Part shown: positions 1,234 to 64,000 of the stretch, piece by piece
How positions within the stretch are numbered: the stretch's first letter is position 1
Layout of the letters: each line of letters starts with the position of its first letter
Sequence record: PP761450.1
Source: Escherichia phage LHE287
DNA: 64,000 bases
Strand: one strand, 5' to 3'
Notes under the pieces: generated by a model
Database searches by the model: none
Told to the model about the DNA's origin: nothing
The model's input: only the letters and a program-made list of their open reading frames with translations
Program-made: the position numbers and the translations under genes

Positions 1234-1896
1234 TTACACCTCCACCGCGTGAGACTTCAGGAGTTCATCAATCTCTTTCTGTCCCATGTATGAGAACGGG
1301 GTGCGCTGGTAGAACGCCCAGAGTACTAACTGGACAACAGCACGGGAACGGGTTTCGGCCGTCATCACCAGGCCACTGAAATGAGGAGACTCAGCTGTCC
1401 ATTGTATCTCTTCGCCCAGGTCTTGATTACAGGTCACCGAGATGCGGAACTTGTTGCACAGATTGTCGACTTCTTTGTACGCATCGGTAGACACACGAAG
1501 TTGTTCCGCATGCGCCCACGGAGTTGTGACGATTCTTTCACCCATCACTTTATCAGAGATAAACCAATCAATACATTCGGTAAACTCACTAAAATGGTCG
1601 ATACGATAAATGCAGTCTCCCCCTTCCATAGAACGCATGGCATGATAGCGAGCGTCGATTTCGTTGTTGTGCATCGCGTTGAAGTCGATGAACACGCGAC
1701 GCGCCAGCACAACATCTTCTGGTTGAAGTGCCAAGAAATCGTTCAGGCGGCTATAATGGAGGATATTGGAACCGTCGTGGCCACGTGTGCAATATGCGTA
1801 ATAGCTACCGATACGGGCGTGGGCAATATAAGACAACGGGGCGAAGAATAATCCGTCAGGATCAGGACCGACGATAATAGAATAAAGTTTTTCCAT
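1234..1896 (-). CDS. hypothetical protein
   Basis: ORF 1234..1911 trimmed to first ATG (1896); the listed start is TTG. Confidence 0.5.
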   Translation of the reverse strand: MEKLYSIIVGPDPDGLFFAPLSYIAHARIGSYYAYCTRGHDGSNILHYSRLNDFLALQPEDVVLARRVFIDFNAMHNNEIDARYHAMRSMEGGDCIYRIDHFSEFTECIDWFISDKVMGERIVTTPWAHAEQLRVSTDAYKEVDNLCNKFRISVTCNQDLGEEIQWTAESPHFSGLVMTAETRSRAVVQLVLWAFYQRTPFSYMGQKEIDELLKSHAVEV

Positions 1897-1952
1897 GATA
1901 TAGTCACTCAAATGAAAGGGCAGCTTTATGATAAGCCGCCCGAGGTTATTGA

Positions 1953-61632: not shown

Positions 61633-62202
61633 ATGCATATTAACACAGCAATCATGAAACACATTATTCCTTTGTTAGCAAAATACGAAGGGGAACGCGC
61701 CACGAAAATCCCTTTTGGAACAATCACCGATGAAGTAAAACGCCTGACAGGTAAAAGTATCAATTTCCGTCGCGTTATTGAATCTGCGTTAGAGTTGGCC
61801 CGTTCTGATTTACGAAATCCAACATTTTCATTTAATATTGACATAACTTCTTCACTTCGACAAGAATTGGAAGAATCATCACAAGCACGGCGCGATCGCT
61901 TCCGTCATTTATATGTTCGTAACGAATTCTCTGAAAGTCGTGTTGGTATGAAACTGGAGTCTATTCGTTCTGACATTTGCTTCACTGTCAACTATGTTTT
62001 AGAGCCAGAAAGTGGGCGCATTTATTTTGGCGCGATTATCGGTTTCTATGGGAACTCTATTAATGGTTGGGCTGAACGCGTTGGATTAAAAGAAACCCAG
62101 AACACTCATTCCACACCTTCTACCCATTATATGACGCATGAAGCTGCTGGTGAATATGTTTACATTCTGCGTCGTATTGTGAAGTTAGAAGTGTTAAAAT
62201 AA
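61633..62202 (+). CDS. hypothetical protein (plus strand)
   Basis: 189-aa ORF downstream of the divergent intergenic region. Confidence 0.45.
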   Translation: MHINTAIMKHIIPLLAKYEGERATKIPFGTITDEVKRLTGKSINFRRVIESALELARSDLRNPTFSFNIDITSSLRQELEESSQARRDRFRHLYVRNEFSESRVGMKLESIRSDICFTVNYVLEPESGRIYFGAIIGFYGNSINGWAERVGLKETQNTHSTPSTHYMTHEAAGEYVYILRRIVKLEVLK

Positions 62203-62259: not shown

Positions 62260-62406
62260 ATGTTTTACATGATGTTACTCCTCATCCTCCTGATCGGGAT
62301 TACCTTTACTCTCCTGGGTCTACCCGATCAGTCCGGTAAACAGACGCCCACTTCGGCGCATCCGGTTTTGAGTGAAGGTTCGTCCGCACTGCTGTGGGCA
62401 GTGTAG
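62260..62406 (+). CDS. small hydrophobic peptide (48 aa)
   Basis: Not in ORF track (<60 aa); strong RBS GGAAGGGAGG 7 nt before ATG; MFYMMLLLILLIGITFTLLGL transmembrane helix. Confidence 0.35.
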   Translation: MFYMMLLLILLIGITFTLLGLPDQSGKQTPTSAHPVLSEGSSALLWAV

Positions 62407-62409
62407 CAC

Positions 62410-64000
62410 AAAGAGGAGAGGACTTTTCAAATTAGCTTGGCTGTAGTATAGTAAATTTTATGGTGTAAAGAGTCGGGCGACCAGCGGTGTAAAGGCTGAG
62501 GCCAAGCACAGTCCTAGGACGAGGACTCCGGCTCCATAAGTCAATATCCACCTTGCATGGTGTCAGTGGACGCACTTGACCGTCGGAGAACGAAACTCCC
62601 TGTTGTAGCGTGATTAGCTCAGAATCAGAGAGCACCCCGTTGGCAAGTCGACACCAACACAAGGGGAGGTCGGGGGCGCTAATCTCCATCACGCCGACAA
62701 CATTATGAGTCTTCCATAGAGGGTTCATAATGTTGCGTCAAAGGGCAACAAGGTTCCTGTTGGTTGAATTAACTTGATTCATAGTTCCTACTGATCTTCC
62801 CGGATTCGAAGGAGCACCAACAGGCGAGGCCGGATGCGTAAGTTCCGGTAAATCGATGGTGATACCCTCGCCAACAAAAATAAAAGGTTTTATCAATAAC
62901 GGGTTACAAAGTATAGTTAACCCACTGAAGCGAAAAGCTGTTTGGGCATTAGACAAACACTTCGATGTGAACCCAGGACATGGCGTCTTGTGCTCAAACA
63001 GGTTTTCGTTTTCGTTGTGAGTGACTTTGCGGGTTTTTAGAAACTGACCAAGCAAATAACTGCTAATGATTCCGAAGTTCTGATGGCGGCGTAACAGCCT
63101 ATAAGTCAGTGAGGTCTTCCGATTCCTCATCACCAAATTCGGCGCACTAAAATAGACGGGAGGGTGTGATTAATAATCTCCCGTCGACAATGCCGTTATA
63201 TCTGACTGTCCAAAGGGGATAAGCTCCTGAGTAAGCAGAGGTGGGTTGCCTAAGTCAGATGGGATGTAAGGTCAGCGCTGGCCAAGCATTTGGGTTCGAC
63301 TCCTAAAAACGGCTCCACATCTTTGAGGATATTCTCACGAGTATCTTGAAAGATGTGAGCGAAGTCTTGCCATCAGCCCTGATCCCTGGCAGGTGAAGGG
63401 CACACAAATCGAAGTGCCTTGACAATTTATCTTAAACCCAAAGGTTGATCTACAAATTGGGCGGCCAATCCGGTGGACGATAACAGCATATTGGGCCATA
63501 CTGTTGAGTCAGGGCACTTCGATTTGTGAACTTGAGAGAGCATTGGGTGAAATAGACCATGCCTTGCAGATTGCGATGCCTATACATTCCGGACACTGGT
63601 GGGCACCAAGAAGAACTCAGTAGCAGACGAGCCATCAGGGTTAGCTACCCGGCGCGGCGAGGACTGGGAGGCCGAACTAAGGGGAAACCCGAGACAGGCG
63701 TAGTATTCTCAAGTTCACAAAATGAAGAGCATTAAAGAACTCGCAAAGGACCTGAAATTGGTATCCCTGGCTTGTACCACTGAGTGTTCTTCATCTTTGG
63801 TGATTCTATGTTGCCGGGCTATCAACCCATGCTTGCTGGAGCAACCAGCGGCTCTGAATCAACCAGCCAGCCTCGTTTGGTCCGAGCGTTAGAGGACAAG
63901 TTGCTTCTACATGGAAGCTGCGAGTTGCGACATTGGTTGCAACTTTGATGGCTCTGGATTTTATAAACCATGTCTATGGGTGACGCGGGATCTTTAGTAC
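62410..64000. other. ORF-poor region of about 1.6 kb, possibly structured non-coding RNA (unclassified)
   Basis: No convincing ORF in any frame; multiple nested GC-rich helices; tRNA-like T-arm/acceptor 3' motif at 63290-63317. Confidence 0.3.

Follow-up and report, generated by a model that had tools for sequence, protein, structure and literature searches.

What does a phage keep in a stretch of its genome that encodes no recognizable protein? The question is raised by the right end of the window, as we call the whole 64,000-nucleotide (nt) stretch of Escherichia phage LHE287 analyzed here (record PP761450.1). An initial annotation, made from the letters alone, had found no credible open reading frames (ORFs) in about 1.6 kb from position 62,410 to 64,000 and had listed a large structured noncoding RNA, degenerate tRNAs, intron remnants, and decayed genes as candidates. 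We find that the locus is a mosaic of separately exchangeable structured RNA modules and that protein genes are excluded as its content. It is structured, tRNA related, and noncoding, as had been supposed, but it is not one large RNA. Its most informative part, overlooked in the initial annotation, is a 187-nt module (the core; 63001-63187 [Table 1]) which, judged by sequence comparison, is a derivative of the mRNA-like half of transfer-messenger RNA (tmRNA) and stands outside the tmRNA family as defined. tmRNA acts with SmpB as the universal bacterial ribosome rescue system, on which lambda-immP22 hybrids and phage Mu depend. For the overall explanation proposed here, a modular stable-RNA locus with a tmRNA-derived core that would dock on the host tmRNA, we see an even chance of being right.

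The core contains a reading frame of 10 codons followed by a stop (GCU AAU GAU UCC GAA GUU CUG AUG GCG GCG UAA), which can be set beside the E. coli tag ANDENYALAA. Upstream of this frame no ATG, GTG, or TTG start is present, no Shine-Dalgarno sequence was noticed on reading, and an in-frame UAG (63038-63040) lies eight codons before the resume codon. Across copies of the core, 32 nucleotide versions of the frame encode 16 decapeptides, with synonymous variation and a length that is constant at 10 codons. The first residue is Ala (GCA/GCT), the second Asn (AAC/AAT), the third Asp or Glu, the sixth Phe, Val, Met, or Tyr, and the seventh Leu or Met. In Vi01 and CBA120 the tag reads ANDNTFLAVA. 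Position 10 is Ala, with GCC, GCG, and GCT used in near-equal numbers, and the stop codon is TAA, TAG, or TGA. U-5 and A-4 before the resume codon are nearly invariant, as in E. coli (AUAGUC/GCA versus AUAAAU/GCA). Read from the codons, this is the pattern that would be expected of a translated peptide under selection, unlike conservation of an RNA only.

The RNA structure around the frame was assessed in an alignment of 64 distinct core sequences. In this alignment 96.4% of cells were paired, compared with 32 to 45% when the partners were slid, and 14 of the 28 pairs had changed on both sides, giving 200 compensatory cells, a number reached by none of 500 shuffles. The closing pair of the hairpin that encloses the stop codon covaries from A-U to G-C (29/64 sequences). 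In the first pseudoknot, PKa, two-sided changes were found in 3 of 5 pairs of stem S1 and 2 of 4 pairs of S2, with 99 to 100% of cells paired; in the second, PKb, S2 was fully compensated in all five pairs tested, and for one S1 pair the combinations C-G, U-A, and G-C are all seen. One stem of the core has been wholly rewritten between lineages (GACGGGAG/CUCCCGUC versus CCCUGA/UCAGGG). Inverted repeats that flank the core (CAGUGCUCUUUCC...GGUAAGAGCAUUG) were considered as a closing stem like helix 2 of tmRNA; all of the alternative pairings were possible too, none could be preferred, and the candidate was not retained. In one prophage copy (IMG/VR contig 2859044976_000002, locus L186:1-2064, core at ~1766-1947, minus strand) an ORF resembling an HNH/AP2-type homing endonuclease lies inside PKb, with the target duplicated (GCGCAUUG...GAUGUGAUUAAUAA before the ORF and GCACUGGCCCGGUGUGAUUAAUAA after it).

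The matches to known RNA families point in the same direction. A relaxed Rfam scan gave tmRNA_permuted as the sole hit in the region (62944-63094; 22.3 bits, E = 0.049), and for each core copy tested the best matches, all below threshold, were to tmRNA_permuted (RF04321), with 22 to 32 bits against a cutoff of 47; matches to RF01850 (15 to 23 bits against a cutoff of 84) were likewise below threshold. Positions 206 to 304 of the beta_tmRNA model align with the tag and its resume context, with the stop, and with the stem of the next pseudoknot (local E = 1.8e-5). The core is without a tRNA-like domain: its ends form no acceptor stem beside a T-arm with CCA. We assign it outside the tmRNA family because it lacks that domain, the G3-U70 pair, and pseudoknot 1 and because neither ARAGORN nor Rfam at its curated cutoffs detects it. 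A one-piece tmRNA spanning 62937-63317, in which GCUGUUU (62937) would pair with AAACGGC-U-CCA (63307-63317), had the attraction of an E. coli-like distance from tag to CCA. It was rejected because its 5' strand belongs to a promoter-proximal hairpin that is kept in Dickeya phage LIMEstone1, which has neither the core nor M3, and because M3, the tRNA-like RNA to which the 3' strand belongs, is self-contained (with its own 5' strand at 63192) and is lost or separated by insertions in relatives. The promoter-proximal leader hairpin (62937-62959) accounts locally for GCUGUUU, a segment that might otherwise pass for the 5' acceptor strand of a tmRNA.

The core is not confined to relatives of LHE287, as window positions 63008-63177 match unrelated phages in unannotated DNA. 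Copies of ~180 nt were recovered by pattern scans of IMG/VR and by BLAST searches in the N4-like phages Pollock and Bp4, in siphophages of 46 to 48 kb (one of them a Vibrio phage), and in an Aeromonas phage of the Chaseviridae. In lambdoid prophages the core lies between the Q gene with the late terminator and the holin gene (137 of 5,426 complete E. coli genomes, annotated in none), and in P1-type phage-plasmids it lies between dmt and tRNA-Asn, where a 49-nt query found 550 plasmid copies; P1-type plasmids with the core are present in about 10% of complete E. coli genomes. In phage P1 (Punavirus P1, MH422554, 62429-62749; P1-type plasmid pCFSAN004176P_03, locus L247:2289-2963) the core, with the tag ANDDLMMVAA, sits in an unannotated gap of 670 nt that runs from the dmt methyltransferase gene to tRNA-Asn, and it comes directly after a terminator-like hairpin. 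Structure and peptide frame are retained in at least seven unrelated phage groups. A scan of genome contigs returned only three species representatives (Escherichia sp., Pantoea eucrina, and one metagenome-assembled genome) and gave no indication of a bacterial source.

Two of these settings bear on whether the core requires a partner. In Aeromonas phage pAh6-C it stands alone in a 277-nt gap between protein genes, and no tRNA is present nearby. A motif, CAUAACUCGAG(U/A)G...CUCUAUGGUAUGUUUA, flanks the pAh6-C core on both sides (locus L249:1090-1160 and 1315-1375); in all probability the motif is a promoter specific to the phage, by which the core becomes a transcription unit of its own. In the siphophages a promoter (TTGACA-17-TAGATT) sets the predicted RNA start ~20 to 25 nt before the conserved core, and because this predicted promoter lies ~25 nt upstream, the RNA would start at the 5' domain described below, which is antisense to tmRNA. 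Judged from these two gene arrangements, the core does not appear to need a tRNA-like partner.

The first 40 nt of the core, its 5' domain (GGUUUUCGU...G(C/U)GACUUUGCGG...UUUUU), are the most conserved part that the structure leaves unexplained; they have no partner within the core. The segments GUUUUCGU and GCGACUUUGCGG are predicted to pair with the host tmRNA gene product ssrA, and for GCGACUUUGCGG no internal pairing partner was found in the core; it is complementary to the host tmRNA instead. In a contiguous run of 10 to 11 bp, phage UAGUUUUCGU(C) meets tag codons 2 to 6 of the host, (G)ACGAAAACUA; phage GCGAC stands opposite host GUCGC across the resume codon, phage UUUGCGG opposite host CCGCAAA (the 3' strand of pseudoknot 1 and the linker), and phage UUUUU opposite host AAAAAG. 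The variable linkers of the domain still keep GUU opposite host AAC. The predicted energy of the first 62 nt of the core with E. coli ssrA was -50.1 kcal/mol, compared with -35.4 +/- 3.5 for dinucleotide shuffles (reached by 0 of 300), and that of the 41-nt domain with tmRNA nt 51 to 125 was -37.5 kcal/mol (z = -4.9). Over 36 distinct 5' domains the mean was -35.1 kcal/mol with the host tmRNA and -23.6 with the domain's own downstream RNA (mean z, -4.7). Among 1,390 control targets the value was equalled only by ~24 segments that hold the reverse complement of a core. Against M3, TL1 (a second tRNA-like RNA of the locus), and other local modules, the 5' domain of LHE287 had no comparable complementarity (z, +1.6 to -1.7).

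From these features we infer transcription, processing, docking, and translation of the core. The core would be excised from a precursor as an RNA of ~180 to 200 nt, with its 5' end at or close to GGUUUUCG and its 3' end beyond PKb. The last pseudoknot is followed at a distance of 4 nt by M3 and, in Bp4, at a distance of 7 nt by a true tRNA-Cys, so RNase P cleavage would set the 3' end of the core. The 5' domain would then anneal to the exposed single-stranded tag region of the host tmRNA and mask the host resume codon and tag frame, with the intermolecular helix taking the place of pseudoknot 1; in E. coli tmRNA, a simple hairpin can substitute for that pseudoknot. The phage resume codon would lie ~22 nt past the duplex, a spacing close to that which separates pseudoknot 1 and the resume codon in native tmRNA. 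With the alanyl-tRNA-like function provided by host tmRNA-SmpB, the ribosome would translate the phage tag in place of ANDENYALAA; host and virus would each contribute one RNA to a hybrid two-piece tmRNA. Because tag variants end in LMAA or LAVA and not in ALAA, recognition by proteases or adaptors may be altered. The full model, a parasitic "half tmRNA" that anneals to host tmRNA and thereby makes rescued ribosomes append a degradation tag specified by the phage, is one we propose tentatively and at less than even confidence, and we would extend it with the same reserve to phages of enterobacteria, vibrios, and aeromonads (P1, lambdoid, ViI-like, N4-like, and T1-size siphophages). If true, it would be the first case of a virus editing the output of trans-translation instead of merely using it, and it would account for the 2 kb without genes that has been on record for ViI-like phages since 2011.

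Several points weigh against this explanation. No tmRNA family attains its Rfam gathering score on the core, and a model built from the core scored E. coli ssrA, although at the correct place, with just 6.8 bits (E = 2.2). Because the scores are low, the case for descent from tmRNA is carried by the tag frame, its context, and the architecture, and homology is not demonstrable beyond the tag region. A pseudoknot 1 upstream of the tag was not found in the core. Because the aligned sequences are related, the independent covariation events are fewer than the cell counts. Complementarity was computed against the tmRNA of E. coli only, and a BLAST search of 5,426 E. coli genomes with the 49-nt domain, which requires 11-nt words, returned only copies of the element. 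The complementarity could be the relic of an inverted duplication of a tmRNA fragment and not a working seed. The two putative promoters of the locus, P1 and P2, are consensus matches only; the role of M3 is uncertain because it has been lost in three relatives; and a ribosome that resumes on a template paired in trans with tmRNA has no precedent known to us.

The same 5' domain also permits a simpler proposal, that the core is no more than an antisense inhibitor or sponge of host tmRNA, which blocks trans-translation or tagging during infection and whose tag-like frame stays untranslated. Its match to tmRNA nt 64 to 107 is a strong and conserved complementarity, the domain stands at the 5' end of the RNA in the siphophages and pAh6-C (by their predicted promoters), like a small-RNA seed, and a tmRNA fragment of mycobacteriophage DS6A that comprises the tRNA-like domain only has been reported as a tmRNA inhibitor (PMC4131195). 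An antisense role leaves unexplained, however, the constant 10 codons, the synonymous changes at conserved residues and the conservative replacements, the three interchangeable stops and the U-5/A-4 resume context, and the maintenance by compensation of a hairpin like helix 5 and two pseudoknots. We regard it as unlikely, though it is the alternative to which we give most weight.

A second alternative is brought up by M3, which begins 4 nt after the core and terminates in CCA. It has an acceptor stem of 6 bp (GCCGUU/AACGGC), a T-arm (UUGGG-UUCGACU-CCUAA), and U73, and the predicted mature end, the CCA, is at 63317; the T-arm-like GGGTTCGACTCC, acceptor-like strand, and CCA pointed out in the initial annotation are indeed present, at 63292-63317, and belong to this RNA. 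As was noted there, a canonical anticodon arm is absent, and two long hairpins stand where the D and anticodon arms would be. M3 is 94 to 97% identical across genera, compared with 70 to 86% for its flanks; the conservation sets in exactly at the predicted 5' G63192 and extends ~12 nt beyond the CCA, and the fold taken by itself is not significant (z = -1.2). Position 3-70 is C-G and not the G3-U70 pair of alanine identity, so M3 cannot be the alanine-accepting domain of a tmRNA.

The core might still be the coding piece of a phage two-piece tmRNA whose other piece is an aminoacylated phage tRNA-like RNA (M3 or an element of 130 to 147 nt, UGYGGUG...CRCCRCA). tRNA-like RNAs with good T-arms adjoin the core in many phages, the T-stems of the 130-nt family covary, and two-piece tmRNAs occur in three bacterial lineages (PMC11915505). 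Yet none of the tRNA-like RNAs has G3-U70 (the UGYGGUG elements have U3-A70 or C3-G70), and a search from -900 to +1500 nt around 83 core copies found no tRNA-like unit with G3-U70 and CCA. These surroundings held ordinary tRNAs and several non-alanine tRNA-like units, none of them a constant neighbor: the partners vary by phage family, whereas the core is constant. The tRNA-like units here are closed, unlike the split acceptor stem of the known permuted form, and no acceptor piece was met upstream of the core in the same precursor. Moreover, the core of pAh6-C has no tRNA-like element nearby, M3 has been deleted in three relatives that retain the core, and the 5' domain is complementary to neither M3 nor TL1. 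A two-piece phage tmRNA is in our view improbable.

The 130- to 147-nt family is of interest in its own right. Its members consist of UGYGGUG, a D arm (GCUC-AAUGGC-GAGC), a long insert, a class II-like extra arm, a T-arm, and CRCCRCA-A. The T-stem occurs in four covarying versions (GUUGG/CCAAC, GCCGG/CCGGC, GCAGG/CCUGU, and GGUGG/CCACU), and position 3-70 covaries between U-A and C-G, with G3-U70 in none. The family is common to Kuttervirus/Taipeivirus phages, siphophages, and lambdoid prophages, is missed by ARAGORN, and is located ~200 to 650 nt after the core (loci L061, L092, L096, and L154) or ~300 nt before it (L128 and L065).

The wider locus was delimited by its ORFs. The eight longest internal ORFs of 62410-64000 (54 to 132 amino acids [aa]) had no PHROG or Pfam family match, whereas the control ORFs of the left flank did match (189 aa, 61633-62202, phrog_3788; 48 aa, 62260-62406, phrog_8415); the ORF-free stretch thus begins at ~62407. 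The 48-aa hydrophobic ORF (plus strand; MFYMMLLLILLIGITFTLLGL...) aligns end to end with phrog_8415 (E = 4e-33) and is a real small membrane-protein gene that forms the left boundary of the noncoding locus. Automatic annotation of relatives places many "hypothetical proteins" of 30 to 60 aa here, which might suggest small or frameshifted proteins, that is, decayed genes or ORFs masked by sequencing errors. The internal ORFs, however, vary among relatives by indels and cassette replacement (a 1-nt indel lies within a 56-aa ORF, and entire cassettes are swapped); substitutions track base pairing and not codon positions, and the identical sequence occurs in hundreds of independent assemblies. The 56-aa ORF is spurious and is explained by the overlapping hairpin at 63722-63794. 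Decayed genes, as the initial annotation had also considered, are hardly conceivable as the content of this region.

Around the finding, 1.8 kb matched 413 phage records. The closest were Escherichia phages A221 (97%) and RPN242 (96%); next came Ackermannviridae (ViI-like) that infect Salmonella, Klebsiella, Serratia, and Dickeya. In RPN242 the end of the 189-aa ORF is followed by ~2.0 kb free of genes, which reach to ~1.0 kb beyond the point where the window ends, and then by tRNA-Met and tRNA-Ser, and the first terminator-like hairpin comes ~2.7 kb downstream of that ORF. Positions 62407-64000 therefore make up the left-hand ~1.6 kb of a locus for stable RNAs, some 2.6 kb long, in a ViI-like phage; the locus appears to be transcribed rightwards from two putative sigma-70-like promoters into phage tRNA genes. 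ARAGORN reported no tRNA and no tmRNA in the whole window while detecting E. coli ssrA as a positive control. At gathering (curated cutoff) thresholds, Rfam gave no match in the window; over the window and nine other loci, tRNAs were the only families reported, and the small-RNA families of prophage late regions (STnc100, AgvB, and AsxR) did not match. The Rfam tRNA model (RF00005) found nothing in the window even at E <= 10, and the group I and group II intron models gave no match at the gathering threshold or at E <= 10, which disposes of intron remnants. The scans suggested at the outset thus yielded only the subthreshold tmRNA matches, while the suggested comparison with related phages found compensatory changes in the core, TL1, and the hairpin at 63403-63528; with these changes in several helices and the conservation in 413 phage records, the features go beyond chance.

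In pairwise comparison with ~20 relatives the locus splits into blocks of sharply different conservation, each lost or replaced independently. A relative that is 99% identical (IMG/VR contig 3300045988_107072) lacks ~380 nt at 63553-63930, apparently by way of a 12-nt repeat, and module turnover thus occurs even among near-identical phages. Annotated HNH endonuclease genes lie within the locus in two Salmonella phages (SP1 and SeF3a) and one Klebsiella phage (HMGUkp5). Window positions 63805-63876 (72 nt) share 87.5% identity with a segment of Klebsiella phage Tribble (76.8-kb genome) that carries a hypothetical-protein annotation, and they form a second module of the locus that is common to an unrelated phage.

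Table 1. Features of the RNA locus at the right end of the window
Feature	Position	Strand	Basis
Promoter-like site P1 (putative), TTTTCA-17-TATAGT	62424-62452	+	Consensus scan
tRNA-like RNA TL1	62608-62695	+	RNAalifold cloverleaf on 12 sequences
11-bp hairpin, CAACAUUAUGA...UCAUAAUGUUG	62698-62735	+	Direct reading; invariant among relatives
Remnant of tRNA-like element, GGCGAGG...CCUCGCC	62823-62872	+	Comparison with SeKF_19 and Vi01
Promoter-like site P2 (putative), TTATCA-16-TATAGT	62890-62917	+	Consensus scan
Leader hairpin, UGUUUG-GGCAUUAGA-CAAACA	62937-62959	+	Direct reading; conserved together with P2
Core, tmRNA-like tag module, 187 nt	63001-63187	+	Frame, covariation, subthreshold Rfam matches
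5' domain of core, complementary to host tmRNA nt 64-107	63001-63040	+	RNAduplex versus E. coli ssrA
Start-less tag frame, ANDSEVLMAA-stop	63062-63094	+	Reading frame and variant comparison
Hairpin enclosing stop codon, like tmRNA helix 5	63080-63109	+	Covariation
H-type pseudoknot PKa	63110-63142	+	S1 63110-63114/63125-63129; S2 63119-63122/63139-63142
H-type pseudoknot PKb, invariant loop AUUAAUAA	63143-63185	+	S1 63143-63148/63163-63168; S2 63155-63162/63178-63185
tRNA-like RNA M3, 126 nt, encoded CCA	63192-63317	+	Cross-genus conservation and predicted fold
Hairpin directly 3' of CCA	63316-63357	+	Direct reading and fold
Long hairpin, 21-bp stem CACAAAUCGAAGUGCCUUGAC/GUCAGGGCACUUCGAUUUGUG	63403-63528	+	Compensatory changes
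H1-type hairpin, AUGAAGAGCAUU...GAGUGUUCUUCAU	63722-63794	+	Homology to lambdoid prophage hairpin
Near-invariant block, CCAGCCUCGUUUGGUCCGAGCGUUAGAGGACAAGU	63867-63901	+	Conserved even in LIMEstone1
18-bp stem (5' strand 63940-63957) and loop	63940-64000	+	3' strand beyond window end

To the left of the core, the position of P1 is kept in the Ackermannviridae, with the -10 variants TATAGT, TAAAGT, and TATCAT, and a variable cassette lies 3' of it. The P2 block is one of only two internal blocks that can be aligned with LIMEstone1. TL1 has a 7-bp acceptor stem, a 4-bp D stem, and a T-arm with the loop CGCUAAU; it lacks CCA, and its "anticodon" arm has 9 bp and a 10-nt loop, compared with the 5-bp stem and 7-nt loop of tRNA. 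Five of its pairs are preserved by two-sided changes, all within the Taipeivirus (Klebsiella phage) lineage. TL1 was missed by ARAGORN and by the Rfam tRNA model. Its conserved 10-nt loop, CAAGUCGACA (62647-62656), includes AAGUCG, which is complementary to G(C/U)GACUU of the core (63021-63027, GUGACUU); GUCGAC is self-complementary, the duplex of the 5' domain with TL1 is not significant (z = 0.26), and the match may be due to chance.

The helix CGAGG...CCGGA-loop-TCCGG...CCTCG of the initial annotation is present at 62823-62872. At this site Salmonella phage SeKF_19 has a T-arm (GUGG-UUCGAUU-CCAC) followed by CCCUCGCC-A, annotated as tRNA-Ala, and Salmonella phage Vi01 has a 147-nt tRNA-like element (UGCGGUG...GUCGG-UUCGAAU-CCGAC-CACCGCA). 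Since the T-arm is absent from LHE287 and the full element is present in both of these phages, the site is a deletion remnant, and by this comparison the helix is read as the surviving acceptor-type stem of the complete element. M3 is a real and highly conserved tRNA-like RNA.

Decay of this kind raises the further possibility that the entire region holds nothing but decaying tRNA genes and tmRNA fragments once captured, a graveyard in which at present only promoters and processing signals for the downstream tRNAs are functional. The clearly decayed element at 62823-62872, the gain, loss, and swapping of modules among close relatives (such as the absence of 63553-63930 from the 99% identical relative), and the homing endonuclease genes inserted in some copies would fit. 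This account conflicts with the compensatory changes that keep the structure and frame of the core in at least seven unrelated phage groups and the TL1 cloverleaf, with the conservation of M3 across genera against its more divergent flanks, and with the endonucleases themselves, which usually aim at conserved functional genes. A graveyard seems to us a little less probable still than a two-piece phage tmRNA.

To the right of M3, the stem at 63403-63528 shows multiple compensatory changes between the type in the window and the Kuttervirus type; one U-G pair in it argues for folding at the RNA level, from the plus strand. The H1-type hairpin has a homologue 3' of the core in lambdoid prophages (GGUAAGAGCAUU...GAGUGCUCUU, with the insert AAAGAACUGGCAAAG), and a different cassette is found in its place in Vi01-type phages. 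In lambdoid prophages, siphophages, and P1, a repeated hairpin unit, CACAACAGGUAAGAGCAUUG-(variable insert)-CAGUGCUCUUWCCGUUGUG, often followed by UGUGGUG...CRCCACAAC, is found beside the core and beside other modules (loci L092, L081, L094, L101, L044, and L121; window 63722-63794). The inserts of this unit are hypervariable, some with T-arm-like motifs (GGUUCGAAUCC), and the units could be RNase III-type processing stalks or cassette boundaries; phage lambda has this hairpin too, 3' of its late terminator tR'. The partner of the 18-bp stem at the window end, CCAGAGCYAUCAAAGUUG, is found in RPN242, SeKF_19, and Vi01.

In the published literature we found no description of a matching phage tmRNA-like, ssrA-like, or anti-tmRNA RNA, and the supplementary files of the tmRNA database paper contain no phage listing. 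By its sequence the core is thus apparently a widespread tmRNA-derived module, seemingly undescribed, and the proposed mode of action would be new. A whole set of tRNA-like and tmRNA-like phage RNAs is overlooked by tmRNA and tRNA finders and by Rfam. The tRNA cluster of phage T4 encodes two stable RNAs that are not tRNAs, species 1 and 2 (rnaC and rnaD), which are processed with the tRNAs; TL1 and M3, in a distant relative of T4, are likened to them by their comparable position.

With one-piece tmRNA (RF00023) the core shares a start-less frame that begins with GCN and encodes AN(D/E)...(L/M/V)AA or LAVA, near ANDENYALAA, as well as U-5/A-4, a helix 5-type stop hairpin, and H-type pseudoknots after the frame. 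It differs in its length (~187 versus ~360 nt), in lacking the tRNA-like domain, G3-U70, and pseudoknot 1, and in a 5' domain that is antisense to tmRNA itself. Two-piece circularly permuted tmRNAs, found in Alpha- and Betaproteobacteria and cyanobacteria (PMC11915505), provide its best, although subthreshold, model matches (RF04321 and RF01850; tag and following pseudoknot stem), and they demonstrate that a tag template can work with an acceptor domain when the two are separate RNA pieces joined by base pairing. In their genes a single transcript carries first the acceptor piece and then the coding piece, which starts with the 5' acceptor strand; in the core the acceptor piece is absent, and under our proposal the complete tmRNA of the host would serve as partner. 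Phage-borne tmRNAs are full in cluster C mycobacteriophages and phage G and reduced to the tRNA-like domain in DS6A (PMC4131195, PMC11915505). The full ones are complete and detectable by ARAGORN, and the core is neither; DS6A keeps the tRNA-like domain without a tag frame, the half opposite to that of the core, and both are phage derivatives of tmRNA. The prophage anti-small RNAs AgvB, AsxR, and others in the PR' "moron" site are 51 to 60 nt long, bound by Hfq, and frameless, and they target GcvB or FnrS (PMC4104026). Their Rfam models (AgvB and AsxR) do not match the core loci, but they share with the core its lambdoid niche between Q and the lysis genes and the principle of pairing with a regulatory RNA of the core genome, which for the core would be host tmRNA.

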